Shown: positions 18,080 through 38,059 of the stretch, one piece after another
How the letters are laid out: each line of letters starts with the position of its first letter
How positions within the stretch are numbered: position 1 is the first letter of the stretch
DNA from: an uncultured Methanosarcinaceae archaeon
GTDB taxonomy: Archaea; Halobacteriota; Methanosarcinia; Methanosarcinales; Methanosarcinaceae
Assembly (NCBI GenBank): GCA_963847185.1
Contig: CAWJYV010000010.1
Location: forward strand, 640,001 to 704,000
Reading direction: 5' to 3'
Length of the DNA stretch: 64,000 nt
Notes under the pieces: model-generated
Databases searched by the model: none
Told to the model about the DNA's origin: nothing
Seen by the model: only the letters and a program-made list of their open reading frames with translations
Position numbers and translations under genes: made by a program

Positions 18080-18262
18080 ATGGCTTTTAATGACAGAAAT
18101 TTCAGGGGAAATTCCGGAGGCTTCCGCGGTAACAGCGGTCCAAGGGAAATGACAAAAGTGACCTGTTCTGACTGCGGTGTTGAGACTGAAGTTCCGTTCA
18201 AACCAACCGAAGGCAGGCCAGTATACTGCAGGGAATGTCTTCCAAACCACAGAAAATTCTAA
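18080..18262 (+). CDS. RGG-rich CxxC-x17-CxxC zinc-ribbon microprotein (copy 1)
   Basis: FRGNSGGFRG...CSDC-x17-CREC; strong SD GGAGGTGA. Confidence 0.9.
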   Translation: MAFNDRNFRGNSGGFRGNSGPREMTKVTCSDCGVETEVPFKPTEGRPVYCRECLPNHRKF

Positions 18263-18273
18263 AGATAATCTGC

Positions 18274-18316
18274 ATCAGATGTTAATCTTGTAATTAATTT
18301 TATATTAACATCTGAT
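18274..18316 (+). terminator. 3' hairpin after CxxC copy 1
   Basis: ATCAGATGTTAAT...ATTAACATCTGAT followed by T-rich tracts. Confidence 0.55.
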
Positions 18317-18485
18317 TCATCTTTTCTTTTTGTTTTTTTGGCTTATTCTCTTTGTTTCTTCACATATTCTTACCTCGTGCGGCTGAGAAAACTGAGAATA
18401 AAATGGCATAGAGAATGAGAACTAGTATGAACTACCAATCCCAAACTTTTGTTATTTTTTGTTAATGTTTCAAGGAGGAGTTAAT

Positions 18486-18839
18486 TTGGCTAATTACAGA
18501 AGCACTATCCGGAAGAAAAGATTAGGTTCCACAAAACCAGTAAATTCAGGAGATGCCCCTGAAACATCCAGGGTACGAATCCCCCGCAAGGAAAGAAACG
18601 AAGTCCTGGCAACGGTTTCAAGTTTACTGGGCTCAAAAAGGGTAACACTTCAGTGTATGGACGGCATTGTTCGCATGGGCCGTATCCCGGGCTCTAAACA
18701 TAAAAAAATGTGGATTCGTGAAGGTGATATTGTTATTGCCAATCCATGGGAAATTCAGGATTCCAAAGCCGAAGTAACCTGGAAATACACAAGACCTCAG
18801 ATTGAATGGCTTGAGAGAAAAGGTTACCTTAATTTCTAA
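18486..18839 (+). CDS. eif1a: Translation initiation factor aIF-1A (paralog 1)
   Basis: [19 protein letters not shown]...[34 protein letters not shown] start after GGAGG, matching paralog 2. Confidence 0.95.
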
Positions 18840-19154
18840 TTAAGGTGGGCTAATAAAGATGCCTGATGAAGGCATCTAAAATAGAGGTATCTAAAAAGAC
18901 GCTGAAATCCTTTTTTACTTTTCTGGATTTCGCTTTGTCAATATATTTTCTTCAGACCAGTTTTAGAGTAACAATATCCTTTTGTTTAGATGACTATTTT
19001 TTCATATTAAACTGAAATTGCCAGCATTGTAACGAATTGGTAAAAGCAAAATAGATATATCGAAGAGAAAAGTGAATTAAAGAAAGATCAGTTAAAATGT
19101 CATTGTTGAGTGTTCTTCTTTTGGTCAGACTTTCAGCAAGTAATTTAATATTTT

Positions 19155-20219
19155 TTATATGTATCCTCTTTTTGAATTACTGGCATTTCCCATGTTTCCT
19201 TCAAACCATCTGCAGTATTCTTCAGGGCATTGCTTCTCAGGACACTCATGAATATACTCAAGGATATCATTGAGTTTTGCGCTGGCCATTGATATTGAAG
19301 TATCTGCACTTCCGTAATAAATTCGGAGTTCATCATTCACTATCACCCATCCGCAGGGGAAAACAACATCATTAACATCTCCACTACGCTCATAAGGTTC
19401 GCGGGGTCCGAAAACCCATCCTTCTGATCTGTGGAGCACTTTCCTGGGATCTTCAAGATCAAGAAGAGCCAGTCCAAGTCGATAACTTTTTTTAGGGGTT
19501 GTCTGGCGTACTCCATGGTACATAACCAACCAACCGTCAGATACACGAAGTGGCTGCGGAGATAAGCCTATTTTGTATGCATCCCACCATCCCCCTTCCC
19601 GAGCATATAGAAGAACCTGATGTTCCCCCCAGGATCTCAAATCTGTGGAAAAGGAGATCCAGATGTTTGCCTTTAAAGTATGACCTGTAGGTGCAGGTCT
19701 GTGCAAAATTGCCCATTTGTTATTAAATTTTACAGGGAATATAGCAACATCTTTGTTATCAGGAGGCATGACAGGTCCTATTCGTTCAAATGCCCTGAAA
19801 TCCTCTGTAAAAGCAAGAGCCGGCAAAGGACCTGAGTCCGAAAAAGCTGTATATGCTATAGCCCACTTTCCCATTTCATCTATGTAAGTTATTCGTGGGT
19901 CTTCAACTCCGTATATCTCTTCAGGATAGTTTAGAGGATCTGGAAAAAAAGTTGGTTTACTGTCAATTTCCCAGCCATTGATTCCGTTTTTACTCCTGGC
20001 TACTGTAAAATGAGAAAAGCCCCTGTGGTCTTCAACACGCGCCAGTAATAAAATTTCATCATTAACTATGGCGGCTGCAGGGTTAAACACTGAATTAGCC
20101 TGGTAAGGCCAATCTTCAACTGTAAGTATAGGATTTTTTTTATGGCGTACAAATAGTTCCCCATGGTCTTTCCAGATCATATTATTCCCCATCCCTTTCA
20201 GATTTTTATTATTCCTCAT
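19155..20219 (-). CDS. GH130-like glycosidase/phosphorylase (5-bladed propeller)
   Basis: NSVFNPAA, GVEDPRIT, DNKD, WLVMYHGV, YERSGDVNDVVFPCG, IYYGSAD. The real start may be the ATG at 20180. Confidence 0.9.
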   Translation of the reverse strand: MRNNKNLKGMGNNMIWKDHGELFVRHKKNPILTVEDWPYQANSVFNPAAAIVNDEILLLARVEDHRGFSHFTVARSKNGINGWEIDSKPTFFPDPLNYPEEIYGVEDPRITYIDEMGKWAIAYTAFSDSGPLPALAFTEDFRAFERIGPVMPPDNKDVAIFPVKFNNKWAILHRPAPTGHTLKANIWISFSTDLRSWGEHQVLLYAREGGWWDAYKIGLSPQPLRVSDGWLVMYHGVRQTTPKKSYRLGLALLDLEDPRKVLHRSEGWVFGPREPYERSGDVNDVVFPCGWVIVNDELRIYYGSADTSISMASAKLNDILEYIHECPEKQCPEEYCRWFEGNMGNASNSKRGYI

Positions 20220-20264
20220 TAAAAGCTATGCAAATAAAAACTAAAAACTGCACACAACTCCTTT

Positions 20265-22253
20265 TCAGGGCTTGATATCAAGCACGTCCTCCACATATGC
20301 CCTGAGAATTTCTGCAACACTCCAGGCCTGGGCAATGCAGCCTCCAGGGGCATGAGGATAGTCACCATTAAACACTTCAGAAATCGTGCCGAGACCTGCG
20401 GTTTCAAGATGTGTATCAAAGCCCTCAATAAGAACCCGCATAGCTTCACGACTGTCTTTTGAATAATTGTGGACTTTCCGGTAAGCTTTCACATAGGCCC
20501 CAAGGAGCCAGGGCCAGGCTGTCCCGTTGTGGTAGGCCGTATCTCTAGTTACGGCGTCTCCATGATACTGTCCCTTATATATGGGATCATCACTCGAGAG
20601 AGTTTTGAGCCCAAAGGGTGTGAGAAGATCTTTTTCAACTCTATCCACAATTGCTTTTTCTTTATCAGGAGAAAGAATAGTATAAGGGAGCGATACGGCA
20701 AAGATTTGATTGGGACGGATTGCAGGATCTTTAACCTGGTTTCCTGCTTCATCCTGATATATCAGATCAAAGAGGCAATTAGTCTCAGGGTTCCAGAAAA
20801 CATCCTCAAAATTTGAGGCAACGCTGGCTGCAAGGGTCTCATATGGCGAAATGTCTTTGCCGAGAAGAATTCCCAAATTGGAAGCAGTCTTCAGGGCATT
20901 ATACCAGAGAGCATTTATCTCACAGGCTTTACCTGCTCTTGGGGTCACTGCCATTTCCCCTATCTTGGCATCCATCCAGGTTAGTTGAGGTCCCTGTTGA
21001 ATGAGATAGTCAAAATCCATTCCGATTCCAAAATCTGTACCTTTATGATAATTGTCTATAATAGTCTCTACAGTATCCCAGATGTCCGAGAGGAAGAGAA
21101 AGTTTTTCGTATATGCAAAGTAACGGCTAACAGCATGAATAAACCAGAGAGAAGCGTCAACTGTATTGTAGATCGGCTCCCCTCCGAAAACCGGGAAAGT
21201 ATTGGGGATTAAGCCTTTCCTACAGTACCTGGCAAAATTTTTGAGAACTGATCTGGCTTCCTCGTAACGATATGGAACCAAAAACAATCCAGGCAGAGAA
21301 ATCATGGTATCCCTTCCCCAGTCAGAGTACCAGTGATATCCTGCAATCACCGTATTTTCACCTGAAGAAGGATTTTTCACTATAAATGCATCAGTTGCCC
21401 TGAGAAGCTTGAGAGCGAAGGGTTCGATGAGCCTGGAATTGAGAGAAAGTAGATTCTGCCTATTTACTTCCCTTGTATAAAGCTCCTCAACTTGCTCGAG
21501 AGTAAAAGAGGAAATATCGTCTGTTGAAGCAACGATAAATATTTGAGAAGTTCCCATTTTGAGTTTGCTTTCGAAATAACCGGGACTGAAATTATCCTCC
21601 TGGGAGTTGCAGTCCCTTTGTTTCTCAACATCGTATTCGAAGTTGTAGTGCCAAACCGGATCAGGATAGTACTGAATATTAGACGAGAGCGAGAAGGTAA
21701 AACCATTAGAACTTTCCAGTTTTACTCCTGCATGACCAGCTTTCTGAGAAAAGGAAAGATACCCTGAACGAGTAGTGAAGTGAAAGTCTCTTGAATTTAC
21801 CAAAGGGAATATTTTTAGCAAAGCTTCCTCTTTTCTGGATGTTATATCATAAAGAACACAGGTTGTATTACTGTTATGGACCATGAAGACTATTTTCTTT
21901 ATGATAAAGTCTCCAGGCTCGTAAACCCAAACAGGAAACGGGTCGTAAATAAATTCTGAAAGATACTCGAAGCCTGCAGGAGAAATAACATCCGGATATT
22001 TATGGGCTGCAAGTTTATAAATTTCTTCATTCCCTCTACTAATTGCGATTTCTTCATCAAGGGAAGAAAGCAGCAAGAATCTCCCTGGGGAGTTCTCCGG
22101 AGCTGCCACAAGCAGTCCGTGGTAAGTCCTTGTTCCAGCTCCTATAACTGTAGAGGAAGCATATCCTCCAAGCCCATTTCCGGTAATCCACTCTCTTTTA
22201 ATTCCTTCTTCATATGTTGAAAGAGAATCTCTTCCAAGCCTGACCCCACTCAT
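20265..22253 (-). CDS. Amylo-alpha-1,6-glucosidase (glycogen debranching enzyme, archaeal type)
   Basis: EWITGNGLGGYAS, AGYHWYSDWGRDTMIS, LTWMDAK, RPNQIFA, YHNGTAWPW, GCIAQAWS. Confidence 0.95.
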   Translation of the reverse strand: MSGVRLGRDSLSTYEEGIKREWITGNGLGGYASSTVIGAGTRTYHGLLVAAPENSPGRFLLLSSLDEEIAISRGNEEIYKLAAHKYPDVISPAGFEYLSEFIYDPFPVWVYEPGDFIIKKIVFMVHNSNTTCVLYDITSRKEEALLKIFPLVNSRDFHFTTRSGYLSFSQKAGHAGVKLESSNGFTFSLSSNIQYYPDPVWHYNFEYDVEKQRDCNSQEDNFSPGYFESKLKMGTSQIFIVASTDDISSFTLEQVEELYTREVNRQNLLSLNSRLIEPFALKLLRATDAFIVKNPSSGENTVIAGYHWYSDWGRDTMISLPGLFLVPYRYEEARSVLKNFARYCRKGLIPNTFPVFGGEPIYNTVDASLWFIHAVSRYFAYTKNFLFLSDIWDTVETIIDNYHKGTDFGIGMDFDYLIQQGPQLTWMDAKIGEMAVTPRAGKACEINALWYNALKTASNLGILLGKDISPYETLAASVASNFEDVFWNPETNCLFDLIYQDEAGNQVKDPAIRPNQIFAVSLPYTILSPDKEKAIVDRVEKDLLTPFGLKTLSSDDPIYKGQYHGDAVTRDTAYHNGTAWPWLLGAYVKAYRKVHNYSKDSREAMRVLIEGFDTHLETAGLGTISEVFNGDYPHAPGGCIAQAWSVAEILRAYVEDVLDIKP

Positions 22254-22377
22254 GTATATTTGATTAGGATTGATTTGTTAAATAGCTGTACGTTTGGAAA
22301 AAAACAATCCCTTTATGAATTGTTCTTTTTACATACTTGAATTCTCTATCGTATTCTTTTTTCCTTCTAAAAGTCGC

Positions 22378-23367
22378 TTACAGAGGGGAAGCAGGTACAG
22401 GACTGCGTCTGGCAAAGGCGGCCTTGAGATGGTCATTCGCCAGACCAATTGCGCTGCAAGTGGCAGGTGTACCCGCAAGTGCGTTTAGCATCACGAAATC
22501 GTGTATAGTTCCAAGGTATCTAACGGCTGTAACATTAACACCTGCTTGAATCAGCTTATGAGCATACGCTTCACCTTCGTCACGGAGCACATCATTTTCA
22601 TCAGTGATAATAAGAGCTGGCGGCTGTCCTTTAAGCTGATCAATTGAGGCCTGTAGCGGGGATGCTGTCGGTTGTCTGCTCGCTTCTTCGTCAGGTAAAT
22701 AGTTGTCCCAGAACCACTTCATAGCCTCACGGGTGAGCCAGATGTCGGTTGCAAACTTCTGATATGAAGGGGTATCGAAATTGGCATCAGTAACAGGATA
22801 AAAGAGTACCTGATAATCAATTTTCGGGCCTCCACGCTCCTTTGCCAGCAGCAGGACCGCTGCTGCCATATTCCCGCCTACGCTATCTCCGGCAACTGCT
22901 AACCTTGAAGAGTCCAGGTTGAGTTTTTTCCCGTTCTCTGCAATATACTTCGTCGCTGAGTATGCCTCTTCTATAGGTGTCGGGTATTTTGCCTCCGGGG
23001 ACGGCGTGAAATTCACAAACACAACTGCAGCATTAGCTCCGCTGGCAATTTCCCTGACCAATCGATCATGCGTATTTTTGTCCCCAAGCACCCAGCCGCC
23101 TCCATGGAAATACATCACGACTGGCAGGGTCTCTTTGATTCCTTTTGGCCTTGTTATTGTAATCGAAACCTGTCCATTAGGACCGGCTGGGATGTTCAGA
23201 TTTTCAATATCAACAGGCAGTTTTGCAACTTCCCCTGCCTGTAAATCGGAAAGAACTTTACGGGCATCTTTGGGTGATAGTTTGTAAATCGGAGTTCCAC
23301 CCTGCTTGTTTACTTTTTCTACAAATGCTCTGGTTGTTGGTTCCAGTGATTCGATGATTTGATTCAT
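22378..23367 (-). CDS. Alpha/beta hydrolase, HSL-family esterase
   Basis: HGGGW oxyanion motif, GDSVGG nucleophile, DVLRDEG, HDF. Confidence 0.95.
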   Translation of the reverse strand: MNQIIESLEPTTRAFVEKVNKQGGTPIYKLSPKDARKVLSDLQAGEVAKLPVDIENLNIPAGPNGQVSITITRPKGIKETLPVVMYFHGGGWVLGDKNTHDRLVREIASGANAAVVFVNFTPSPEAKYPTPIEEAYSATKYIAENGKKLNLDSSRLAVAGDSVGGNMAAAVLLLAKERGGPKIDYQVLFYPVTDANFDTPSYQKFATDIWLTREAMKWFWDNYLPDEEASRQPTASPLQASIDQLKGQPPALIITDENDVLRDEGEAYAHKLIQAGVNVTAVRYLGTIHDFVMLNALAGTPATCSAIGLANDHLKAAFARRSPVPASPL

Positions 23368-23851
23368 GAATTATCCCCCTTAGCTTGCTTTTATTCGTAA
23401 TTTGATTGATGTAATTAGTAATGCAAAAAATAATCTCAGAGTCCACCTGCAATTACAGGATTGATGTTCAAAATCACTATAGGATTCCCTATGGGAATTG
23501 CAGATATCATTTAGAGCAAATAATTTAGTTAAACATGCGCCTGGTTTTCTTTGTTAACAGGTAAAACTGGACTACTGTTGAGCAGATATATAACTGAGAA
23601 ATTTATATAATTAATAGAATAAATTTTCCTTATGAATAGTAATCTCTAAAAAGAGCAAAAATAAAAAAGTTCAGAAGAAAGAAGGGGCATGACAGAAACA
23701 ATTTTTGCCTCGAATTTCTACCTGCTGCTTTTAAAAATCTTGTAGCAGGAAAAACATAATTAGCTGCCGTAGAAAAATCATTTCAATAAGATTCTACGTT
23801 TTAAACAAAATCCGGGGAGATTTGAAGTAAATTATCAAGGGGTTAAAAAGC

Positions 23852-25000: not shown

Positions 25001-25114
25001 TTTCACAGAAAAGAGATTTAATTTGAGACTTTGCAGGAAAACGATGAATCTGAAGAAACACTTTAAATTAAGAATGCAAAATTCTTTGGAAAATGGGCGA
25101 GATGTTAAGTTAAT

Positions 25115-26076: not shown

Positions 26077-26214
26077 TAAAAGAGCAAGAAGAGGGGTTGA
26101 GACTGATTTTTGTATTCATTAGCTAATTGGAAATGTGTTCTCTCTTTATGTTTTAAGACTCACTTGTCTCTCACTTCTCAATAATGTGGCTGATACATAA
26201 AGGAGTTGCAGATA

Positions 26215-27264
26215 ATGAATATGAGTGGCAGTTCAATACCAGCTAAAATTTTACTCTACAGCACTCTTGCTGTTATACTTACATTGGGAATGAGAGAGAT
26301 AGCTCCTATACTCACGACCATTATTTTCTCTATATTCGTTGCACTGCTTTTTACCCCGCTTGTCCGCTGGCTGAAAAAAAAAGGGATTCCAGGTGGATTG
26401 AGTGTTATTCTGGTAATTTTGTTACTCTCTCTAATTATCCTGATTCTCGGGATAATAGTCGTCAGAGCGGCTCTCCAGTTTGGAAGCCAGATTCCGATAT
26501 ATCAGGATCAATTAACTTCTTTCATGATTAATTTTGCAAAATATATCCCTTCATACGAAGGTTTTTCCGTACAGTCAATTGTTCGCGGTACAGTATCAAT
26601 TACGATCTCTCTTATGATAAGCATTGTTAATGGAATTGTAAACGCCGGGACAACAGTCGGAATTATTGTGGTTACAGCAGCATTTTTGCTAATAGATGCC
26701 TCCAATGCTCCTGAAAAAGCAGATCATGAGCTTGGAAAGCAATCTGAACTCAGATTGAGGCTGGGTAGTTTTAGCAAGAAGCTGGTAAAATTTATTGTCA
26801 TAAGAGCAGAAGTAAATATTATCACAGCCACAGCAATCGCTCTTCTTCTCTTTATAGGAGGTATTGACTACGCTATTCTCTGGGGGGTTCTTATATTCCT
26901 GCTAAGCTATATCCCTTACATCGGTCTGGTTGTAGCTTCAATTCCTCCCATAATGCTTGCGATTTTTAAGTATGGGCCTTTAGGTGCCCTTGCAGTCATT
27001 CTAATTATCTTCGTTGTTGACGCGCTTGCAGAAAATATTCTTTTTCCGTCACTTATGGGAAAAGGTGTGCAATTATCTCCTGCTTTTTTATTTGTTGCTC
27101 TACTCTACTGGAATTTCGTGCTTGGACTTGGAGGTGTGCTGCTTTCCATACCTCTTACAATTGTTTTAAAAATTTTACTTGAAAGCTTTGAGGAAACAAG
27201 ATGGCTGGCCAGATTAATGGGTCCAGCAGATGATATTGAGAATGGGGAAATAAGCATCACATGA
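26215..27264 (+). CDS. AI-2E (UPF0118) family transporter
   Basis: Hydrophobic, SYIPYIG, PSLMGKGVQLSP, LSIPLT motifs. Start taken at the ATG after AAGGAG. Confidence 0.9.
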   Translation: MNMSGSSIPAKILLYSTLAVILTLGMREIAPILTTIIFSIFVALLFTPLVRWLKKKGIPGGLSVILVILLLSLIILILGIIVVRAALQFGSQIPIYQDQLTSFMINFAKYIPSYEGFSVQSIVRGTVSITISLMISIVNGIVNAGTTVGIIVVTAAFLLIDASNAPEKADHELGKQSELRLRLGSFSKKLVKFIVIRAEVNIITATAIALLLFIGGIDYAILWGVLIFLLSYIPYIGLVVASIPPIMLAIFKYGPLGALAVILIIFVVDALAENILFPSLMGKGVQLSPAFLFVALLYWNFVLGLGGVLLSIPLTIVLKILLESFEETRWLARLMGPADDIENGEISIT

Positions 27265-27284: not shown

Positions 27285-27324
27285 GGAGGAGTTGTAAAAT
27301 ATGAGGAGGAGTTGTAAAATATGA
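27285..27324 (+). repeat. 20-bp tandem duplication of SD + ATG
   Basis: GGAGGAGTTGTAAAATATGA x2. Confidence 0.9.
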
Positions 27325-28373
27325 AAATGAATAACAGTTCAGTACCAGCCAGGATTCTGGTATACAGTACTTTTGCTGTCATCCTGACAATAGGAATGAA
27401 GGAAATATCTTCTATACTTACAACCATCTTTTTCTCTATCTTCGTTGCCCTGATATTTACTCCGCTTGTCCGCTGGTTCAAGAGAAAAGGTATTCCCGGA
27501 GTACTGAGTGTGCTTCTGGTAATTTTGTTATTAACTCTAATTATCTCTGTTCTTGCGGTTGTAGTCGTTGGAGCCGCAGTCCAGATTGGAAACCAGCTTC
27601 CAAACTATCAAAGCCGGCTTATAGAGATTCTGGAAGAACTCTCACCACATCTTCCATCTACTGAAGAATTATCCCTGCAGTCCATTATTCGCAGCATTGC
27701 GTCAGTTGCAATCAGCCTTACGGTAAGCATCCTTAACGGACTTATAAATGCCGGGACAACAGTAGGAATAATTATAGTCACAGCGGCATTTTTGCTGCTG
27801 GGTGATGCTGGAGATCAGGAAAAAGCAGAAGAACAACCCATACTCAAATCACGGCTAAATAAGTTTGGCAAAGGTCTTGTGGAGTTTATCGTAATAAGAA
27901 CAGAAGTAAACCTTGTGACAGCTATTGGAATTACAGTAATTCTTCTCATAGGGGGTATTGATTTTGCAATTTTCTGGGGCATAATGGCATTTTTTCTCGG
28001 TTATATTCCATACATCGGCCTGGCTTTAACTGCAATCCCTCCAGCTGTTTTCGGGCTGCTCCAATATGGGATTGTAGGCTCTCTAGCTGTGATTATAGCT
28101 ATCTCGATAGTTAATGCGCTCACAGAAAACGTAATCTTTCCTTCACTCGCAGGGAGAGGCCTCAAACTATCTCCGGCTATTGTATTTCTTTCCCTTCTCT
28201 ACTGGAATTATGTGCTTGGAGCTACAGGAATGCTGCTTTCCACGCCTCTTGCTATGGTCTTAAAGATTATTCTGGAGAGCTTTGAGGAAACTAAATGGCT
28301 GGCCAGATTGATGGGGCCAGATGGAAATGGAGCAGAAGGTGAAGAAAACGAGAGGCAGGAAAAAGGAAGTTGA
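27321..28373 (+). CDS. AI-2E family transporter (tandem paralog)
   Basis: Collinear and highly similar to the upstream gene (e.g. NAGTTVGIIIVTAAFLL, ESFEET.WLARLMGP). Confidence 0.9.
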   Translation: MKMNNSSVPARILVYSTFAVILTIGMKEISSILTTIFFSIFVALIFTPLVRWFKRKGIPGVLSVLLVILLLTLIISVLAVVVVGAAVQIGNQLPNYQSRLIEILEELSPHLPSTEELSLQSIIRSIASVAISLTVSILNGLINAGTTVGIIIVTAAFLLLGDAGDQEKAEEQPILKSRLNKFGKGLVEFIVIRTEVNLVTAIGITVILLIGGIDFAIFWGIMAFFLGYIPYIGLALTAIPPAVFGLLQYGIVGSLAVIIAISIVNALTENVIFPSLAGRGLKLSPAIVFLSLLYWNYVLGATGMLLSTPLAMVLKIILESFEETKWLARLMGPDGNGAEGEENERQEKGS

Positions 28374-30571: not shown

Positions 30572-30646
30572 AGATCCTTGGGCTTATTAAGGAGTCTCTT
30601 TGAAGAATTAAAGGCAGCTTTAGTTATCCTTTCAACTTTCGGGTCA

Positions 30647-31192
30647 TTATCTTTTAATTTTCGACATCACACTCTGAGTAATCAGTTTTTCGTACTTTCT
30701 CCAGGTATTTTCATCAATTTCAGGCATAGATATACTATGAGCTTCACTTCTCGCAGGAGCGGTGCAGGAGTCGATTACTTTCTGGATGGCGGCAGGATCT
30801 TTATTTCCAACCATATCTATGACTTTTATTTCTCTGAGAAAGCGGGTGATTGCAGTCATCGGGATTTCATTTAAGTAGGGCAGGGATGCTTTTGAACCGA
30901 CTATTTTTCGCGAGCCTGCCATTGTAGAAACGCCATTTTCAGCAAGTGCAATCAGGGACTGACCTGGAAAATGGGCACTATCTTCTCCGCAGACGACCAG
31001 GCAGGTTATATTCGGGTTTGCAAGAACATTTGCAATTATTTTCTCAATCCCGAAGTTCTCAGAAAAGCAAGTTCCGCAGATAGCATAATTTTTCAGGTTC
31101 CAGATTCTATAGTCAGAGGTAAGAGTCACTACAGCTACGCTTGAATTTACATTCCCTATTACATAGTCACCATCAGTTACAGGCCACTCCAT
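30647..31192 (-). CDS. Soluble MtrA/MtxA-like corrinoid protein
   Basis: WP..GDY.IG, AVVTL, ENFGIEKIIANVLANPNI, CGE...H.PGQSL; no C-terminal membrane anchor. Confidence 0.85.
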   Translation of the reverse strand: MEWPVTDGDYVIGNVNSSVAVVTLTSDYRIWNLKNYAICGTCFSENFGIEKIIANVLANPNITCLVVCGEDSAHFPGQSLIALAENGVSTMAGSRKIVGSKASLPYLNEIPMTAITRFLREIKVIDMVGNKDPAAIQKVIDSCTAPARSEAHSISMPEIDENTWRKYEKLITQSVMSKIKR

Positions 31193-31310
31193 AATATCGC
31201 TCCTGATCTCAAAAGGCAGTATCTCACTTGATTACTCAGAATAATGTTGTTTTTCTGAAACTTATACTATATGTTTTCACTGGATTATCATATCACTTTT
31301 ATAAGCTCAA

Positions 31311-32681
31311 CTATTCTCCTAAATCCTCAGAAATGCCTGCTGAAATTCTCTCGGCTTCAATTTCTGCCAGTCTTTCTTTTTCGATTTTTATAAGCCTGAA
31401 TGAGAGAAAAACAACTATGTATATTATTGCGGCTGCGATAAGGAAGGAAATTGCTCCGAAATGTGTATAGAGAAGGCCACCTGCCAGAAGGCCGATTATA
31501 CTTGCCAGGCTACTTGCACTCATGGCAAACCCCTGTACTGAGCCCTGATACTTATTTCCTGCAAATTTTGAGAGGATAGAGAGGATAGAGGGCCACATGA
31601 TTCCGTTTCCAAGCGCAAAAAAGACAGCTGCTATATATAAAAGGAAAAAATTTCCGGGGACTATGAGGATGAACTGCAGGCCAAGGATGAAGCCTCCACC
31701 GACTACCAGAAGCGATTCCCGATACCTTTTAGCAAGTCTTCCAAGAACAGGTCCCTGCACGAAAGCCATAAGGGCACTAATAACGGAGAAATAAATGCCA
31801 AGTGTGGCAGGATTCCATTCAAGGGCTGCAACAGCAAATATCGGGAATGCAGTATAATATATATTAAAACCCAGAAAGATAAGAAAATAAAGGGTCAGCA
31901 TGAAAGGGATATACTCAAGCTTGAAAATCTCGTTGAAGGTAACTTTATTTTCTCCTTCTACACGATAACATTCCTTTTGCTCCTGTCCAAGTACTTTCCT
32001 TATACTTTCAGGTTCGGAGTATCTTTCAATTTTGCAGGGTTTGGAATCAGGTAGGAAGAATATCACGACAAGAGCCCCTATAACTGAAATTACAAGGGCT
32101 GCAGACACAGGGAGAAGTTCACCGTAAACAGTTGCCCCGAGGAGACCTGCAAGGGCAGGGCCGACTACATATCCAAGATTGGAGGCAACAGACATCCTTC
32201 CATAGTTTTTGTTTCTATCCTCTTCGGATGTCAGGTCTGCAAGATACGCGTTTGCCACAGATATGTTTCCTCCTGTAGCCCCATCAAGAGCTCTGCCACA
32301 GAAAAGCGCAAACAGAGGAAGGGTGACTGTAAATGTACCAAGAAATTCGGAGTTAACTTCTATTAAAGGGATTATCGGCAGGAAGAGCGCGGAAAGAAAG
32401 ATTATCCATCCAATAACGGTCCCAATCTGGCTCAATAACAGAATTTTTTTCCTCCCATAAAGGTCAGACCAGCGCCCCAGAACAGGAGCTCCGATGAGCT
32501 GGAAGAAAGGATAAGTGGAAGTCAGCAGGCCGTAGATAAGTGCATTTCCTTTGTAGTCAGTCACGAGAAATACGAGAAAAGTGAGGATAACCCCGAATCC
32601 CAGGGTTCCTATGAATGTGATCGTATATAAGGGAAAAAGTGCCTTCCCTTCTACAGATGAGGATTCTGAATCCCGAATCAT
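31311..32681 (-). CDS. MFS transporter (TetA/DHA1-like)
   Basis: GRWSDLYGRK motif A, RALDGATGGN, ~12 hydrophobic segments. Confidence 0.9.
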   Translation of the reverse strand: MIRDSESSSVEGKALFPLYTITFIGTLGFGVILTFLVFLVTDYKGNALIYGLLTSTYPFFQLIGAPVLGRWSDLYGRKKILLLSQIGTVIGWIIFLSALFLPIIPLIEVNSEFLGTFTVTLPLFALFCGRALDGATGGNISVANAYLADLTSEEDRNKNYGRMSVASNLGYVVGPALAGLLGATVYGELLPVSAALVISVIGALVVIFFLPDSKPCKIERYSEPESIRKVLGQEQKECYRVEGENKVTFNEIFKLEYIPFMLTLYFLIFLGFNIYYTAFPIFAVAALEWNPATLGIYFSVISALMAFVQGPVLGRLAKRYRESLLVVGGGFILGLQFILIVPGNFFLLYIAAVFFALGNGIMWPSILSILSKFAGNKYQGSVQGFAMSASSLASIIGLLAGGLLYTHFGAISFLIAAAIIYIVVFLSFRLIKIEKERLAEIEAERISAGISEDLGE

Positions 32682-33299
32682 CCATAGATAGTATGTTTAC
32701 TTCATGCCTTATAGTATTTCATATCTAAATTTTCGAGTTTCGATGTGGCTTCTTTCGGAGTAAATGAATGCTATTCTTTCATTTCTCTATGAAAAATACC
32801 GCTAAACACAGGCCAAGAGTCACTTTCCCGGTGTTGTTTCCAGAATGCCTTTTTCTGGAAAGGTTCTAAACTCTTCTCATTTGTATCCCATGTCGAGACT
32901 TAAACGTGAGGTCAAGCTAAGTCTTTAGACAATATCTAAAATCTGGACATTCTGTACTTAAGAACAGCTCATTAAGAGGTTTTTATGTTATTTGGGAGCT
33001 GTATGAGGAACTAATTAACGCCTGAAATGATTCTTTTTGCTTTATTCGCATTCTAGCCGCTTTCAGAGATTTTATAAAGAATAAAAAGATGAATAATACG
33101 TGAAAACTACCTTTTGCTTTTCTCGGAGACTTTTTAATTGATATAGGAGTTTATATACTGATTTATTTAAATTTGGAGTTTCCATCATCTATTATCAAGG
33201 TAAATAAAGTATTATCAAGTTTTAAACCCTTTACGCATAGCAATATTCAGGACTGTTATAAAAAGTATACTTATATTCTAATTTTACAATATGAGTTTA

Positions 33300-33785
33300 G
33301 TCCCAGGTTGCTTCCCTTGAAATAAAGCAAAAGTCGGGAGCAATATACGGGAAATTAAAAGATCTTTAAATTTGAAGGAATAAAGATCTCTCTAAAAAAT
33401 AAGAAGGAAACTTCGAAAAACGAGGAACAAACACGGAGAAAATTGAACACTAGTACGTTCAGTGTACGAAAGTTGCGATATCTGCTCTTTCAATTAAGTC
33501 TCTGTTCCTTCCGGAGATGCTGTGGCAGAAATCGCTACCAGATCCCGTGCAGGCAACCTGCATTATGCCTCTGAACAGGTACTGATTCAGAGTAGACGGT
33601 TGCACGACAACAGAAAGCACAGTTGTTGTATTTCTCTGTGATGAATAAAAACCCTGGATAAGCGGTAGAAAGGCGGTGTCTGATACTGAATGAATCGGGG
33701 TTACTACCTTACACAGAAGAATTTTTCAGGTAACACCTGAGGGCGGATCAGATGTTGCCTGAAAGATCTTTCTTATTTTTGGGTA
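33300..33785 (+). ncRNA. Candidate large structured non-coding RNA (unassigned)
   Basis: GC-richer island within a 1.3-kb ORF-free intergenic region. About 10 hairpins, a 14-bp closing stem, GAAA loops and a T-rich end; TATA-like boxes at 33256-33277. Confidence 0.5.
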
Positions 33786-34045
33786 GATATTTTCGAGATA
33801 GTTATTTCTAGCTTGCTATTTTCTGAATCTATTCTTTAATCATTAATGCTGTTTTTAGTCGTAATTTTATAAGTTGCTATTTGTGGCCGATTTTAAGTGT
33901 TATTCTCTGGGCCTTATTTTCAGTGTTACTTTGGAATTATTAATCTTCGAATCTTAATTCTTTAACTTCTTGTCCTTTACAGATGGATCTCGCAAAATAA
34001 AAGGCCTCGAAATATTCTTTATTCCAGAGTATTATTCGGTTATAT

Positions 34046-34717
34046 ATGTCAGTAATATATTGGAAGAATATTTCCGGAAAGAATATACCTTCAAGCCTGG
34101 ATTTATACCCTGTAATTTATCAGTATTTACAGGATGGATACAAAATTCTCGACATTGGATGCGGTTTTGGCAAGATTAGCCTGAAACTCGCTTCCCTCGG
34201 ATATTCTGTGACAGGGATAGACATTAATCATGAGGCAATAAGGCTTTCAAAAGTAGTTGCAGAGGAGGGAAGTACTTCAGGAAAGGCTGAATTTGCAGTC
34301 GGAAATGCTTCGGTACTTCCTTTTTCTGGAAAAAGTTTTGATCTTGCAGTCATGCAGGCTTTTCTGACCTCTGTACCTGACGCGCAGGAAAGAATAAAAA
34401 TCATAAAGGAAACCTTCAGGGTACTGAAACCCGGAGGCTGTCTCTATCTTGTAGAATTTGGACAGAACTGGCACCTTAAACTTTATAGGAACCGTTATCT
34501 CAGGGATTTCCCAGTTACAAAAGAAGAAGGATCTTTCCTTGCCCATAACCCTGAGACCGGAAAAGTAGAGTATATAGCACATCATTTCTCCGAAAAAGAA
34601 CTTGTACTTCTGATGGTAAATTGCGGGTTTGACATCGACTATTTCAGGATTGAAGAACTCAAAACCAGAACCGGAAATAAAATTAATGGTTTTGTTATCA
34701 TTGCTAAAAGACTTTGA
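34046..34717 (+). CDS. Class I SAM-dependent methyltransferase
   Basis: ILDIGCGFG, GIDIN, LPF...SFD, RVLKPGG. Confidence 0.9.
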   Translation: MSVIYWKNISGKNIPSSLDLYPVIYQYLQDGYKILDIGCGFGKISLKLASLGYSVTGIDINHEAIRLSKVVAEEGSTSGKAEFAVGNASVLPFSGKSFDLAVMQAFLTSVPDAQERIKIIKETFRVLKPGGCLYLVEFGQNWHLKLYRNRYLRDFPVTKEEGSFLAHNPETGKVEYIAHHFSEKELVLLMVNCGFDIDYFRIEELKTRTGNKINGFVIIAKRL

Positions 34718-34855
34718 AGTTCCGTGTTTCATCTTCACAGAGCTTATTTTAAGTGTTGGATCTGGGTAAATCTTCAGACTCACATCATTTTCTTCTTTAT
34801 CAGTATCTCCTCATCACTATCTTCCCATCACTATTTTTTCATCACTGTTTTCTCA

Positions 34856-35182
34856 TCAATTTATTCTGTCACTTAGATGAAGTCCAACTACGCCTGCCAC
34901 GACAAAGAATAGGGATGATATTTTAAGTGTGTTTACCGGTTCTTTAAAAAAGAAAATCCCAATAACAGTAATGAGAGCTGTCCCAAGCCCTGCCCATATT
35001 GCATATGCGATACTTACATCTATTCCCTTAAGGGAAAGGGTAAAAAAATAGAAACTGATGGCATAAAATACGAAAATTAAAATGGAAGGAAACAATCTTG
35101 AAAAACCCTCAGAAAGTTTCATGCATGTGGTTCCACAGACTTCAAAAACAATTGCCAGTAAGAGCAGGTAGTAATAATTCAT
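34856..35182 (-). CDS. SMR (EmrE/QacE-like) multidrug efflux protein
   Basis: AIVFEVCGT (Glu14 equivalent), KLSEGF, AYAIWAGLG. Confidence 0.92.
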   Translation of the reverse strand: MNYYYLLLLAIVFEVCGTTCMKLSEGFSRLFPSILIFVFYAISFYFFTLSLKGIDVSIAYAIWAGLGTALITVIGIFFFKEPVNTLKISSLFFVVAGVVGLHLSDRIN

Positions 35183-35404
35183 TAATCCACTGTTTATTTC
35201 TCCATCTATTAATTAGTTATTTTTTATTAAATTCTTCAACGATCTATTCTTGCAAAATTATATTTTTTTGATAATAGGCCAAAAAATGGTCACAATTAAA
35301 GTATCATACTTATTTTCTCCAGTTAAAACAGCCGCTGAAGCCTGTAAATTATTTTTTTCATTTTGTAATTTCTGTTCTTATGTATACTGCACATCCTAGA
35401 TACA

Positions 35405-35564
35405 TTTATATAGTATGAGAGCTTGGGTCATATTAGCAGTAAAAATAAAGAGCCATATAATCTGTTATTAAAAACCTCATTTTTGTTTTTAATAAAAGAG
35501 CGTATAGATCTTATTTTTATAGCAGCCTAAATGTATATCCGCTATAAGCGGAGGTGAAACAAAA
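35405..35564 (+). promoter_or_regulatory. TATA box and conserved structured 5' leader, copy 2
   Basis: TTTATATA; ATAATCTGTTATTAAAAAC..GTTTTTAATAA; TCCGCTATAAGCGGAGGTGA. Confidence 0.8.
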
Positions 35565-35789
35565 GTGAGTTTTAGTGACAGAGGAGGGCATTCCTTCAGA
35601 GGAAGAGATAGCAATCGGGGAAGTAGAGACAACAACCGTGGTGGTTTCAGAGGCGGCAGCAGCGGACCCAAAGAAATGTACCCAGCGGTTTGTTCTGACT
35701 GTGGCGTTGAGACCCAGGTTCCATTCAAGCCAGCTGAAGGAAGACCTGTTTACTGCAGAGACTGTCTCCCAAAACACAGAAAATTCTAA
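35565..35789 (+). CDS. RGG-rich CxxC-x17-CxxC microprotein (copy 2, GTG start)
   Basis: FRGRD..RGGFRGG...CSDC-x17-CRDC. Confidence 0.9.
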   Translation: MSFSDRGGHSFRGRDSNRGSRDNNRGGFRGGSSGPKEMYPAVCSDCGVETQVPFKPAEGRPVYCRDCLPKHRKF

Positions 35790-35989
35790 TTCCATAAATT
35801 CTGCATCTTCTAAGTTTTAGTGTTATAAATGGAAATCTCTGGAAACAGAATTTCCAAATCCACTTTATTCTAATGCTTATTTAACTCAAACTCTACAATT
35901 GATTTCACCTATGCTCTAGAAGCTGATTTATTACAACAATCTCCCGATTTTGAGGAAGACGCTTTTATCCTTTTGGTTCTCTGGATTAG

Positions 35990-36139
35990 TTATATATAAC
36001 ATAAACAGATTTTTACAATTAGTAAAAATAATAAGACATAATCTGTTATTGAAAACTTCATTTTCGTTTTAAATAATAAATTATCTCTTATCATATTTTT
36101 ATAAATTATTTTATCCGCTATAAGCGGAGGTGAAACAAA
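35990..36139 (+). promoter_or_regulatory. TATA box and conserved structured 5' leader, copy 3
   Basis: TTATATA; ATAATCTGTTATTGAAAAC..GTTTTAAATAA; TCCGCTATAAGCGGAGGTGA. Confidence 0.8.
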
Positions 36140-36364
36140 ATGGGTTTTAATGACAGAGGAAACTCCTTCAGGGGAAGAGACAGCAGCCGGGGTGGCAGAG
36201 ACAGCGGCCGTAGTGGTGGTTTCAGAGGCGGTAACAGTGGCCCCAGAGAAATGCACAAGGTTACCTGTTCTGACTGCGGGGTTGAGACTGAAGTTCCGTT
36301 CAAACCAACCGAGGGACGGCCAGTGTACTGCAGAGAATGCCTTCCTAACCACAGAAAATTCTGA
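36140..36364 (+). CDS. RGG-rich CxxC-x17-CxxC microprotein (copy 3)
   Basis: CSDC-x17-CREC; near-identical to copy 5. Confidence 0.9.
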   Translation: MGFNDRGNSFRGRDSSRGGRDSGRSGGFRGGNSGPREMHKVTCSDCGVETEVPFKPTEGRPVYCRECLPNHRKF

Positions 36365-36567
36365 AATTTAATATCTCACTCGTAAGTGTTGATCTATAAA
36401 TTAATATATCAACACTTGTCCACTTTTATTCATGCTTTTTGTTAAACTTTTTTTCCCCTTCTTTCTACATCGGGCTTTAACCTCGTTTGCAAGAGTGGCA
36501 GCTTCATAACGAAGGTTACAGTAACTCAAGGTAAAAACATTTTTCACGGTATACTGATATGATAAAA

Positions 36568-36720
36568 CTTATATAATGTGATTGTATATGTAGCTCCAGT
36601 AAAATTAAGAGTCATATAATCTGTTATTAAAAACCTCATTTTTGGTTTTAATAAAAGAGCATATAGATCTTATTTTTATAGCGTATTAGGAAATCCGCTA
36701 TAAGCGGAGGTGAAACAAAA
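36568..36720 (+). promoter_or_regulatory. TATA box and conserved structured 5' leader, copy 4
   Basis: CTTATATA; ATAATCTGTTATTAAAAACC..GGTTTTAATAA; TCCGCTATAAGCGGAGGTGA. Confidence 0.8.
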
Positions 36721-36924
36721 ATGGGTTTTAATGACAGAGGAAATTCCTTCAGGGGAAGAGACAACAACCGCGGAGGTTTCGGAGGTCCTAAGGAAATGCA
36801 CACTGCAGTCTGCTCTGACTGCGGTGAAGAGACACAGGTACCTTTCAGGCCAGACCCTGACAGACCAGTCTATTGCAGAGAATGCCTTCCTAACCACAGG
36901 AAGCCTAGAGAGAACCGCTATTAA
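36721..36924 (+). CDS. RGG-rich CxxC-x17-CxxC microprotein (copy 4)
   Basis: CSDC-x17-CREC. Confidence 0.9.
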   Translation: MGFNDRGNSFRGRDNNRGGFGGPKEMHTAVCSDCGEETQVPFRPDPDRPVYCRECLPNHRKPRENRY

Positions 36925-37064
36925 CTCTCCTAATTCATTCATAATTTTGCTTGACATATTATGTCCGTTTTGCTGCTTGGGCAGGTCAAACGGACCACTT
37001 CTTTTTATACACTTAATTAAATGCCTATCTCTATTCTATGTTGCTCTGTTTTTTCATGGTAATA

Positions 37065-37217
37065 TTTATATAATCAAACTACTATGTAGGTATAGCTAAA
37101 AATAAAGAGACGTATAATCTGTTATTAAAAACCAGTTTTTGTTTTTAATCAATAAATTATATACAATCTTGTTTTTACCTTTTATCTCTTATCCGCTATA
37201 AGCGGAGGTGAAACAAA
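37065..37217 (+). promoter_or_regulatory. TATA box and conserved structured 5' leader, copy 5
   Basis: TTTATATA; ATAATCTGTTATTAAAAAC..GTTTTTAAT; TCCGCTATAAGCGGAGGTGA. Confidence 0.8.
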
Positions 37218-37442
37218 ATGGGTTTTAATGACAGAGGAAATTCCTTTAGAGGAAGAGACAGCAGCAGGGGCGGCAGAGACAGCGGCCGTAGTGGCGGTTT
37301 CAGAGGTGGCAACAGTGGCCCCAGAGAAATGCACAAGGTTACCTGTTCTGACTGTGGGGTTGAGACTGAAGTTCCGTTCAAACCAACCGAAGGACGGCCA
37401 GTGTACTGCAGAGAATGCCTTCCTAACCACAGAAGCTTTTAA
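37218..37442 (+). CDS. RGG-rich CxxC-x17-CxxC microprotein (copy 5)
   Basis: CSDC-x17-CREC. Confidence 0.9.
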   Translation: MGFNDRGNSFRGRDSSRGGRDSGRSGGFRGGNSGPREMHKVTCSDCGVETEVPFKPTEGRPVYCRECLPNHRSF

Positions 37443-37708
37443 ATATAATATATGATTTGAGTGTTAGTTTCATTTAATCTGGATTAACACTCTCTTCATT
37501 TCACTATTTGTTTTTTATTCCTTGTTTTTCATCTTTGTTTCTGTGAAAGCATTCCGTAGCCAGAACGTAATAAATTAACTCCATATGTTTGGAACAGTAA
37601 ATACGTTTAACGGCAATGATGAAAGAAAAACAATTGGAATGGAATAGAAAACATCTAAAACTAATATTGAGATTATTGAAATAAATTATCAGGATTGGAG
37701 GAATTAAT

Positions 37709-38059
37709 TTGGCTAATTACAGAAGCACTATTAGAAAGAAACAAGTAGGATCCAATAAACCGGTAGGCATGGGGGATACTCCTGAAGTAACGAGGGTGCG
37801 CACTCCTCGAAAGGACAGAAATGAAGTTCTGGCGACGGTCGGAAGCCTCTTAGGTTCAAAAAGAGTTACTCTCCAATGTATGGATGGAGTAGTCCGAATG
37901 GGCAGGATCCCCGGCTCCAAGAATAAGAAAATGTGGATTAGGGAAGGCGATATTGTGATTGCTAACCCGTGGGAAATTCAGGACTCAAAAGCTGATATTA
38001 CATGGAAATATACAAGACCTCAGATCGAATGGCTTGAAAGAAAAGGGTACCTTAATTAA
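37709..38059 (+). CDS. eif1a: Translation initiation factor aIF-1A (paralog 2)
   Basis: Same motifs as paralog 1; TTG start after GGAGG. Confidence 0.95.

Follow-up and report, generated by a model that had tools for sequence, protein, structure and literature searches.

The window analysed here, a stretch of 64,000 nucleotides from the genome of an uncultured Methanosarcinaceae archaeon, holds two copies of a gene pair typical of Methanosarcina, in which genes for small CxxC-x17-CxxC zinc proteins (CxxC genes) are followed on the same strand by a gene for a paralogue of the initiation factor aIF-1A. All seven ORFs (five CxxC and two aIF-1A, all on the + strand) lie where a sequence-only reading of this DNA had placed them. 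That reading had presented positions 18080-38059 as a duplicated module; the two modules are real, but the interval is not a single unit, since 17 kb of DNA with unrelated metabolic genes keeps the two loci apart. The spacer encodes a GH130 phosphorylase, a glycogen-debranching-type enzyme, an esterase and an Fe-ADH, as well as an AI-2E transporter, an MtrA-like protein and an MFS transporter. The genome as a whole has 11 CxxC and 4 aIF-1A genes, with a third CxxC/aIF-1A module on another contig.

Anatomy of the two modules

The first module opens with a TATA-like box (TTTATATG, 17930-17937), which matches, in an alignment of 95 leaders, the conserved TTTATATAA block, and continues with the conserved leader of CxxC gene 1 (17960-18079). 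Within this leader lie the segments S1 (17982-17995) and S2 (18005-18018) of an inverted repeat, and a small hairpin (18054-18067) that overlaps the Shine-Dalgarno sequence GGAGGTGA at 18065-18072. Copy 1 (18080-18262, 60 aa; TIGR04272 73 bits, PF23477 68.9 bits) contains a third segment, S3 (18085-18097), complementary to S1, and is followed by an inverted repeat and T-runs that are likely to be its terminator (18273-18339). Behind it lies an aIF-1A paralogue of the ANYRS type (tree group C; TIGR00523 122.3 bits, NF003085 162 bits), listed as an ORF at 18459-18839; its TTG at 18486, located behind AAGGAGGA, corresponds in the alignment to the start codon of the second copy, and translation likely begins there (18486-18839).

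The second module carries four CxxC genes. Copy 2 (35565-35789, 74 aa, GTG start, "MSF..YPAVC" type) follows a TATA-like box (35405-35412) and leader spanning 35405-35564, copy 3 (36140-36364, 74 aa) follows a box and leader at 35990-36139, and copy 4 (36721-36924, 67 aa), which has a C-terminus of the ...PRENRY type, follows those at 36568-36720. The box of gene 5 (37065-37073) and its leader (together 37065-37217) precede copy 5 (37218-37442, 74 aa), and the same elements recur there: S1 at 37117-37130, S2 at 37141-37154, the hairpin at 37192-37206, the Shine-Dalgarno sequence at 37204-37211 and S3 at 37223-37235. The region between copy 5 and the aIF-1A gene (37443-37708) contains a hairpin, T-runs and a GGAGG Shine-Dalgarno sequence directly before the TTG with which the second aIF-1A paralogue starts (37709-38059; ANYRS type, tree group B; TIGR00523 122.9 bits, NF003085 167 bits).

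The proposal that every CxxC gene has its own TATA box holds, as a TATA-like box is found about 150 nt upstream of all five. Each gene combines this strong TATA box with a conserved leader of about 120-135 nt (the transcription start being inferred from the TATA position), a perfect Shine-Dalgarno sequence and a likely hairpin-plus-oligo-T terminator; in most of the 51 CxxC/aIF-1A pairs listed, the T-runs start about 55-75 nt past the CxxC stop. RNA-library contigs from four libraries of four studies cover the window genes at 92-100% likeness.

The CxxC proteins and their leaders

The five proteins (60-74 aa) have a tail that is disordered and rich in RG/FRG, and a CxxC-x17-CxxC domain of 37 residues, whose Cys pattern is present in 5/5. 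All match TIGR04272 (cxxc_cxxc_Mbark) over profile positions 1-37 of 37 with 72-74.1 bits and PF23477 (zf_Tbcl_2) with 68.1-70.3 bits, the curated cut-offs being 36 and 27 bits, respectively. Across 51 CxxC sequences C43, C46, C64 and C67 are invariant, and the alignment shows the domain surface and the RG-rich tail to be conserved. A metal-free AlphaFold2 model of copy 5 has a disordered tail and a zinc domain (pLDDT 82-89) predicted with confidence as a beta-hairpin plus a short helix, i.e. a zinc knuckle or ribbon. No significant match to TFIIB or any solved protein was obtained in sequence or fold (PDB profile search, Foldseek); the weak fold matches, to MCM N-terminal zinc modules and PHD fingers among others, all had E >1. 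Between copies 3 and 5, 14 of 225 nt are different, which amounts to 12 synonymous codons (stop included) and a single replacement, K73S. Module 1 also has a twin on contig C4 (82.6% identity over 1068 nt), which encodes a protein identical to copy 1 with 7 synonymous and 0 non-synonymous differences. Both sets of counts bear out the purifying selection that had been read from copies 3 and 5, said to differ at one residue and at many synonymous sites.

The same domain is found fused to the C-terminus of other proteins, often with the same RG-rich linker, for example to a DEAD-box helicase (residues 380-416 of 420) and to an Ssb-like OB fold (residues 153-189 of 194), and also to an FKBP; methyladenine glycosylase and SET domains are further fusion partners. 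Helicases are a recurrent class, with DEAD and/or Helicase_C domains in 9 of the 98 longer matches. These fusions favour a role of the CxxC proteins as putative binders of single-stranded nucleic acid. The glycosylase, SET and Ssb-like partners would speak for DNA no less than for RNA. Of the proposals made by the sequence-only reading, binding to nucleic acid is thus a plausible one.

[quoted passage not shown] In the proteomes of that study, which covered standard growth, salt, virus, heat and starvation, most of the small proteins were present in all five conditions (PMC12704099). The M. mazei proteins are the same as those of the window in their TIGR04272/PF23477 domain, N-terminal MxFNDR and C-terminal types, and they too are multi-copy, besides being readily detected and zinc-binding. 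The primers published for A00184 and A01980 have the sequence ATGGCTTTTAATGACAGAAA..., also found in the window genes, and the 3' primer of A00184 ends on the kind of tail seen in copy 4 (PMC12704099). The authors took a role in transcription as their starting hypothesis, noting that TFIIB and Brf share the Cys spacing, and one of the eight is annotated as an RNA-polymerase subunit; the passages of that paper drawn on here mention no aIF-1A neighbour, conserved leader or RNA link (PMC12704099). The C(P)XCG micro-proteins of Haloferax volcanii (HVO_2753, HVO_0758) are likewise small archaeal zinc proteins, with one or two sites, but they form a different family (PDB profile E = 0.43 for the CPxCG protein 8q5b, Foldseek E = 2.9 for HVO_2753). 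They are not known to have an RG-rich tail. Some H. volcanii zinc-finger micro-proteins are reported as important for stress adaptation (PMC6562870).

The CxxC leader is conserved across 95 distinct sequences, and its S1 can pair with S3 over at least 11 bp in 99 of 99 genes, 76 of which reach 13 bp. Codons 3-6 are synonymously frozen (TTT 101/101, AAT 94/96, GAC 99/101, AGA 101/101), while at conserved zinc-domain columns the share of the major codon ranges from 0.42 to 0.99. Folding z-scores of the leader lie between -2.9 and -4.4. RNAalifold predicted no consensus pairs for the whole leader alignment; two local hairpins show modest covariation, their double-side-change cells being matched by 1 of 500 shuffles and their covariation score by 87 of 500. 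By predicted pairing, the leader has two alternatives, to fold on itself or onto codons 2-6 of its gene. For the S1/S2 inverted repeat, a role as DNA operator is just as conceivable.

The aIF-1A paralogues and their linkage to CxxC genes

Both window copies exceed the TIGR00523 cut-off of 102.9 bits and contain the S1-like OB domain PF01176 (65.8 and 66 bits). Among 51 such paralogues 62 columns are invariant, and the fold is therefore under constraint. The start codons are unusual. At the ANYRS position, 56 genes have CTG in 43 cases, TTG in 8, ATG in 3 and TTA in 2; when the start was guided by the Shine-Dalgarno sequence, 131 distinct aIF-1A genes gave CTG 95 times, TTG 16, ATG 4 and GTG 1, with none found in 15. 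In 64 of the 131 there is no ATG, GTG or TTG anywhere before the conserved core. A conserved non-AUG start with a strong Shine-Dalgarno sequence in front is predicted for the sampled aIF-1A genes, which come from methanogen and related families and include every Methanosarcina copy checked, and CUG or UUG starts extend across the sampled phylum except for eight high-G+C loci, taken to be haloarchaeal, that start with ATG or GTG. Our literature searches found no report of such starts in aIF-1A genes.

Expression of the paralogues may depend on the upstream gene, as many of the intergenic regions have no promoter-like motif: counted from the listing, 31 of 51 are devoid of a TATA-like motif, and a pattern search of 37443-37708 found none. 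The pattern is crude, so a weak promoter before aIF-1A may exist; group A regions do have such motifs. One RNA-library contig record (X1, record 8) spans 37405-38050 and bridges copy 5 and aIF-1A, a weak hint of co-regulation.

From 24 congeneric genomes 53 extra aIF-1A genes were retrieved, of which 49 have a same-strand CxxC gene upstream (251-1125 nt when measured from domain end to domain start, with 169-1031 nt of intergenic DNA after the CxxC stop), the four without one being L031, L035, L036 and L047. None of 10 housekeeping aIF-1A loci in these genomes has such a neighbour. The source genome conforms: all three extra copies follow a CxxC gene, and the fourth, which scores best (141 bits), has no such gene before it. 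The extra copies group together in the tree (a single branch, SH-like support 99), with linkage in 52 of 56 rows. The CxxC gene directly before aIF-1A usually encodes a particular subtype, with a short ...H/Y-R/K-x-F/L tail (46 of 51, absent in 5), and aIF-1A is the only conserved gene neighbour of CxxC genes, which also stand alone (four of five on contig C4, one on C8, three of four in the window array).

Outside the genus the picture differs. Nine genomes of five sister genera have the ANYRS-type aIF-1A in 9/9 and a CxxC match in 8/9, but at least 90 kb separate even the closest pair; therefore the link is lineage-specific and the coupling young. It is confined to Methanosarcina and one neighbouring genus, and is no deep functional couple. 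The conserved linkage looked for by the sequence-only reading thus exists among congeners and is absent from the five sister genera. Moreover, the 49 linked cases are not independent events, since they could all go back to two genes that became neighbours once and were then duplicated jointly.

The H. volcanii aIF-1A paralogues HVO_0136 and HVO_A0637 are likewise a duplicated factor, with redundant but not identical functions, and the double deletion was not obtained (PMC3828320, PMC8576121). Unlike these, the copies considered here number 3-5 per genome (2-5 in Methanosarcinaceae at large) and lie in a distinct ANYRS-type clade shared across that family, and the extra Methanosarcina copies have a fixed upstream neighbour and CUG/UUG starts. 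Such numbers contradict a review-type paper that credits H. volcanii with two paralogues "in contrast to other archaea" (PMC8576121).

What the pairing may be for

Most likely, the purpose of the pairing concerns RNA and the start of protein synthesis. The reading that we prefer, with a probability of roughly one half, is that the CxxC proteins bind single-stranded nucleic acid, probably RNA, in RNA handling or translation; that their synthesis would be tuned by a leader pairing either with itself or with codons 2-6; and that little of the aIF-1A paralogue would be made, in regulated amounts, its expression relying on read-through of the terminator and on a weak start codon. The anatomy of the modules, their families, synteny, selection and cis-elements are established by the analysis, whereas RNA binding, read-through, regulation and any joint action of the two products on the ribosome are what we infer.

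Several other explanations have to be considered. An ANYRS-type aIF-1A may have landed behind a CxxC gene once and the pair been copied as a block, with no shared function, aIF-1A at most borrowing transcription from the strong upstream promoter. This would fit the unlinked sister genera, the paralogy of the three linked aIF-1A groups, the twin of module 1 and the solitary CxxC genes, but it is unlikely given that the pairing has been kept in all three paralogous modules and in 24 species despite divergent intergenic DNA, that a particular CxxC subtype precedes aIF-1A, and that many intergenic regions are without a promoter-like motif. A role on DNA or in transcription rather than translation (as TFIIB-like ribbon, RNA-polymerase accessory or ssDNA binder) could draw on the Cys spacing, the RNA-polymerase annotation, the glycosylase, SET and Ssb-like fusions and the weak MCM and PHD matches; the lack of a significant TFIIB match, the recurrent fusions to RNA helicases and a translation factor as sole conserved neighbour make it improbable.

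The sequence-only reading had itself favoured a dosage-amplified, cold- or stress-induced system of RNA chaperones and initiation factor, comparable to bacterial Csp arrays. Bacterial cspA genes are likewise multi-copy genes for small nucleic-acid binders (binding here being predicted) with a long conserved leader of alternative folds, and the CxxC leader resembles the long 5'UTR of cspA mRNA. The near-identical copies with strong promoters of their own, the RG-rich tails and the fusion to DEAD-box helicases, a cold-linked class, would also agree with it. However, the CxxC proteins have no cold-shock domain (no match in the five by Pfam or NCBIfam), the Csp role in methanogens is already filled by single-TRAM proteins, the archaeal Csp analogues on record (PMC8576121), and most of the M. 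mazei small proteins are present in all five conditions (PMC12704099). A term search for "cold" in PMC12704099 gave 0 occurrences and our literature searches found no cold data on either gene type; we regard this reading as quite improbable. Least credible of all is a metallothionein-like zinc buffer or store, with copy number following metal demand: abundance of copies, ready detection and zinc binding would suit it (PMC12704099), but each protein of 60-74 residues has a single structural Zn site, the domain surface and tail are conserved, and the helicase and OB fusions fit a binding module better.

Our preferred reading, of nucleic-acid binders coupled to a weakly started aIF-1A, can be extended to a lineage-specific circuit, which is possible but doubtful as a whole. 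Here the CUG (sometimes UUG) start in aIF-1A genes of Halobacteriota that use Shine-Dalgarno sequences would serve the cell as an internal sensor of how stringent initiation is, comparable in archaea to the autoregulation of infC through AUU and of eIF1 through poor context. Methanosarcina would have set spare aIF-1A copies downstream of the terminators of highly transcribed genes encoding RG-rich, zinc-containing RNA binders, whose leaders may switch between a self-paired form and one clamped onto codons 2-6, and the combination would retune translation initiation with growth state. Bacterial infC (AUU) and eukaryotic eIF1 (poor context) are start-selection factors behind deliberately poor starts (PMC4705826, PMC6237735), and the window aIF-1A genes similarly lie behind weak ones; feedback is known in those systems, whereas for aIF-1A the suggested likeness is one of start codons. 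The archaeal fidelity factor on record, in the sources consulted, is aIF1 and not aIF-1A, and the aIF1 gene of the source genome starts with ATG.

Few small proteins of a model methanogen are as readily detected as the CxxC-x17-CxxC proteins (PMC12704099), whose translation-factor neighbour, helicase and OB fusions and switch-like leader offer testable leads on their function. Should the CUG start be confirmed, aIF-1A would offer one of the rare examples of conserved CUG initiation among prokaryotes, many database aIF-1A N-termini (which now disagree, giving 106-161 aa among eleven related proteins) would be corrected, and archaeal control of start-codon stringency would become open to experiment.

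Two modules in the window and their counterparts elsewhere in the genome

The modules described here are real, and they are kept in Methanosarcina and partly in the neighbouring genus g21. The sequence-only reading had placed five small zinc-protein genes (CxxC-x17-CxxC with an RG-rich tail, here called CxxC genes) and two aIF-1A genes on one strand, and this is borne out by the ORF positions, the family profile scores and a comparison of copies 3 and 5. On the forward strand, CxxC copy 1 (18080-18262) is followed by an aIF-1A gene with a TTG start at 18486-18488 and its end at 18839 (module 1). Copies 2 to 5 (35565-35789, 36140-36364, 36721-36924 and 37218-37442) precede an aIF-1A gene at 37709-38059, with TTG at 37709-37711 (the second module). 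All five small proteins match TIGR04272 (cxxc_cxxc_Mbark; 72-74 bits, cut-off 36) and PF23477 (zf_Tbcl_2; 68-70 bits, cut-off 27), and the two aIF-1A ORFs score about 122 bits with TIGR00523 (cut-off 102.9) and 162-167 bits with the NF003085 subfamily. Between copies 3 and 5 there are 14 differences in 225 nt, made up of 12 synonymous codon changes and a single replacement; the one-residue difference amid many synonymous ones had been noticed before. What did not hold is the treatment of 18080-38059 as one unit, since the 17 kb between the modules hold unrelated enzymes and transporters; because this is ordinary metabolism, the idea of a mobile island bounded by the two modules is rejected as well. 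Among the intervening genes are two tandem ORFs of visibly similar sequence (26206-27264 and 27321-28373, 352 and 350 aa), the former an AI-2E family transporter (PF01594), and, on the reverse strand at 30647-31192, a stand-alone MtrA-like gene (PF04208, 137 bits) with no mtr operon around it in the window.

The window is positions 640001-704000 of contig C10 in an assembly of 4.04 Mb, which contains four aIF-1A genes and 11 CxxC genes. Of the latter, five are in the window, another five are scattered along 16 kb of contig C4, and C8 has one. The best-scoring aIF-1A of the genome (141 bits, contig C7, 730557-730835) has no CxxC neighbour, and the other three lie 298-348 nt behind a CxxC gene, measured from domain end to domain start. 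The C4 module is a diverged copy of module 1, with 82.6% identity over 1068 nt. Comparison of 18080-18839 with C4:190557-191416 gives 7 differences in 183 nt of the CxxC gene, all seven synonymous and none non-synonymous, so that the proteins are identical, against 57 in 354 nt of the adjoining aIF-1A (32 synonymous and 19 non-synonymous codon differences). Such a contrast within one module suggests that CxxC copies undergo gene conversion or that their synonymous sites are strongly constrained. Four of the five CxxC genes at C4:188151-204707 are of a 62-aa type ending in ...PRENRRY, spaced 5-6 kb apart. The genes between the five C4 copies are heterogeneous (methyltransferases, ADH, a TrmB-type regulator, IS-like genes and a Fic protein), and none recurs there as a second conserved partner.

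Distribution of the linkage in the genus and the family

Genes matching TIGR04272 were found in all 24 congeneric genomes drawn (2-16 matches each) and, outside the family, in 9 of 16 genomes of the order; among the named control genomes, only Methanosarcina acetivorans matched. In 20 of the 24 congeneric genomes a single aIF-1A match stands at 138-145 bits, and each of these 20 has further matches at about 107-134 bits, contig-end partials scoring lower; outside the family, most genomes of the order have a single aIF-1A. We fetched 53 of the 62 lower-scoring loci and 10 high-scoring ones. A same-strand CxxC gene lies 251-1125 nt upstream in 49 of the 53 (the exceptions being loci L031, L035, L036 and L047), and in none of the 10 within the fetched DNA, which for three of them extended less than 1.7 kb upstream. 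In a FastTree analysis of 70 aIF-1A rows, the high-scoring copies and three out-of-family sequences were split from the extra copies with an SH-like support of 99 on both sides, and the extra copies formed three groups, A, B and C.

The commonest array in relatives is CxxC-CxxC-aIF1A(A)-CxxC-CxxC-aIF1A(B), with CxxC-aIF1A(C) elsewhere, and in 46 of 51 pairs the CxxC protein encoded directly before aIF-1A ends in a short tail of the ...HRKF type. The window has four CxxC genes followed by aIF1A(B), without a group A gene, plus one group C module. Where relatives carry the group A gene, between the second and third CxxC genes of the array, only 356 nt are present (36365-36720), in which blastn detected no aIF-1A remnant; the group A gene thus seems to have been cleanly lost. 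In one relative, the aIF-1A behind a CxxC gene consists of two overlapping partial matches of 59 and 47 bits (locus L055, 2934-3114), probably a frameshifted pseudogene.

At the family level we drew 81 genomes at least 90% complete, from 14 genera. Two aIF-1A genes per genome is the usual number in most sister genera, against mostly four or five in g21. In each of 10 complete genomes for which both loci were fetched, one aIF-1A was housekeeping-like and the other carried an N-terminal ANYRS; given its presence in all 10, this paralogue type is family-wide rather than specific to Methanosarcina. The synteny survey supports the proposed linkage for Methanosarcina and, in part, for g21, and not for genera g14, g15, g16, g19 and g24, where none of nine genomes had a CxxC gene within 2.5 kb of the ANYRS-type aIF-1A. 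CxxC genes are present in eight of these nine, the nearest about 90 kb from any aIF-1A. A mixed array, with three aIF-1A and two CxxC genes, was seen in g21 alone. Since the other sister genera are unlinked, the association arose in or near Methanosarcina, and the many linked cases go back to few events.

Leaders of the CxxC genes and initiation of aIF-1A

The alignment of 95 distinct regions upstream of CxxC genes begins with a TTTATATAA box, continues through a strongly conserved leader and ends in a small hairpin, TCCGCT-ATA-AGCGGA, which overlaps the Shine-Dalgarno sequence GGAGGTGA 6-7 nt before the ATG. Some of its G-C pairs have changed to A-U or G-U, and genes of the ...PRENRRY type do not have this hairpin. 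Further upstream, a 14-nt element, S1 (ATCTGTTATTAAAA), can pair as a local hairpin with S2 (GTTTTTAATCAAAG), about 10 nt downstream, or alternatively with S3 (TTTTAATGACAGA), which starts at the last base of codon 2 and reaches the end of codon 6; S2 and S3 are similar in sequence. In the window, the S1-S3 regions of copies 1 to 5 lie on the forward strand at 17982-18097, approximately 35461-35582, 36044-36157 and 36620-36738 (copies 2 to 4), and 37117-37235. Pairing was assessed by scoring named helices, and for S1:S3 also by a script count, which gave 13 consecutive pairs in 76 of 99 CxxC genes and no fewer than 11 in any of the 99; most substitutions yield a wobble or Watson-Crick pair. 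Of the five window leaders, two have S1:S3 in their minimum-energy fold and three have S1:S2, with folding z-scores of -2.9 to -4.4. Across 101 genes, codons 3-6 (TTT AAT GAC AGA) show hardly any synonymous variation, in which they differ from conserved columns of the zinc domain.

We read this pairing as a putative translational or stability switch, the transcription start being inferred. It is also possible that the S1/S2 inverted repeat is a DNA operator. RNAalifold returned no consensus pairs for the full 219-column leader alignment, and no Rfam family covers the leaders, a search of 17000-39000 giving two chance-level matches elsewhere (E = 0.21 and 0.66). Beyond the CxxC stop codon, an inverted repeat is followed by T-runs from about 55-75 nt past the stop in most of 51 pairs. 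The interval to aIF-1A measures 169-1031 nt, and a simple pattern for a TATA-like motif is absent from 31 of the 51 intergenic regions. Because one RNA-library contig covers 37405-38050, reaching from within CxxC copy 5 as far as the end of aIF-1A, read-through between them is plausible; the libraries, like all 24 sequencing runs considered, are assembled contigs that convey no starts, ends, strand or levels, and in which uncovered parts carry no meaning. The contig ends fall at words common to paralogues and were left out of the analysis.

aIF-1A genes start at a near-cognate codon that follows a strong Shine-Dalgarno sequence. In the paralogues, this codon stands immediately 5' of the conserved A-N-Y-R-S and 5-7 nt after GGAGGAATTAA. 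Both window genes have TTG there, and among 56 paralogues it is CTG in 43, TTG in 8, ATG in 3 and TTA in 2. In each of the 11 housekeeping genes of the genus, a stop codon 3-4 codons upstream is followed by (G)AGGTATCACA-CTG-GCA-GAC, and neither ATG, GTG nor TTG is available as a start; that of this genome, on contig C7, starts with CTG, and its aIF1 gene with ATG. CTG also predominates in the sister genera (19 of 22, the remaining three TTG) and in a phylum-level sample (n = 29; CTG 25, TTG 3, ATG 1). Sixteen further loci include eight of high G+C, taken to be haloarchaeal, with ATG in six and GTG in two, the other eight having CTG (5), TTG (2) or ATG (1). Pooling 131 distinct genes gives CTG 95, TTG 16, ATG 4, GTG 1 and none found in 15, and 64 of the 131 have no ATG, GTG or TTG before the conserved core. 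Public N-termini of ANYRS-type proteins disagree: annotated "MANYRS..." forms have 112-117 aa, "MRK..." forms, starting seven codons inward, have 106-110 aa, and one of the proteins read has 161 aa. Some aIF-1A matches contain one in-frame TAG, TGA or TAA (e.g. G042:C35:234-515, G071:C192:9119-9400 and G110:C1:2640046-2640321), probably because the profile match extends over the stop just 5' of the CUG start. In our searches of the open-access literature, no paper describing aIF-1A as starting at CUG turned up.

Possible roles of the small proteins

The small-protein family and the factor aIF-1A that make up the modules are both known. In the AlphaFold2 model of the CxxC protein, 37 residues form a beta-hairpin and a short helix with good confidence (pLDDT 82-89), and the RG-rich tail is disordered (pLDDT about 50). 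A Foldseek search of the PDB with this model gave no match at E <= 0.001, the best hits being generic zinc modules (E = 1.4), and a sequence profile search of the PDB gave one non-significant match (E = 0.43). A complex prediction for the aIF-1A paralogue with CxxC copy 5, run without controls, yielded no answer (score 0.00). A search for longer proteins returned 98 matches, all with PF23477 and most without another domain; DEAD and/or Helicase_C occur in nine and Ssb-like_OB in 10, with FKBP, methyladenine glycosylase and SET as single cases. Pfam scans place the zinc domain C-terminally, at 380-416 of 420 residues in helicases and 153-189 of 194 in OB proteins, and the OB and FKBP fusions retain the RG-rich linker and a "(P)REMHKAxC" junction. 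Given these fusions, the CxxC domain is best regarded as a portable module that would bind single-stranded nucleic acid, and the company of helicases and aIF-1A favours RNA as its target. A role in transcription was suggested by the authors of the M. mazei study as no more than a starting point (PMC12704099), and the literature searched gave no published link between CxxC small proteins and aIF-1A.

The modules had been taken for a dosage-amplified RNA-chaperone and translation-initiation stress system resembling bacterial Csp arrays, a cold-shock analogy that our results leave unsupported. The best-supported reading is that they encode zinc-bearing binders of RNA or single-stranded DNA, which may tune their own expression, followed by a spare aIF-1A that would be weakly initiated. 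The newest by-product of the analysis is the apparently conserved CUG/UUG start of aIF-1A.
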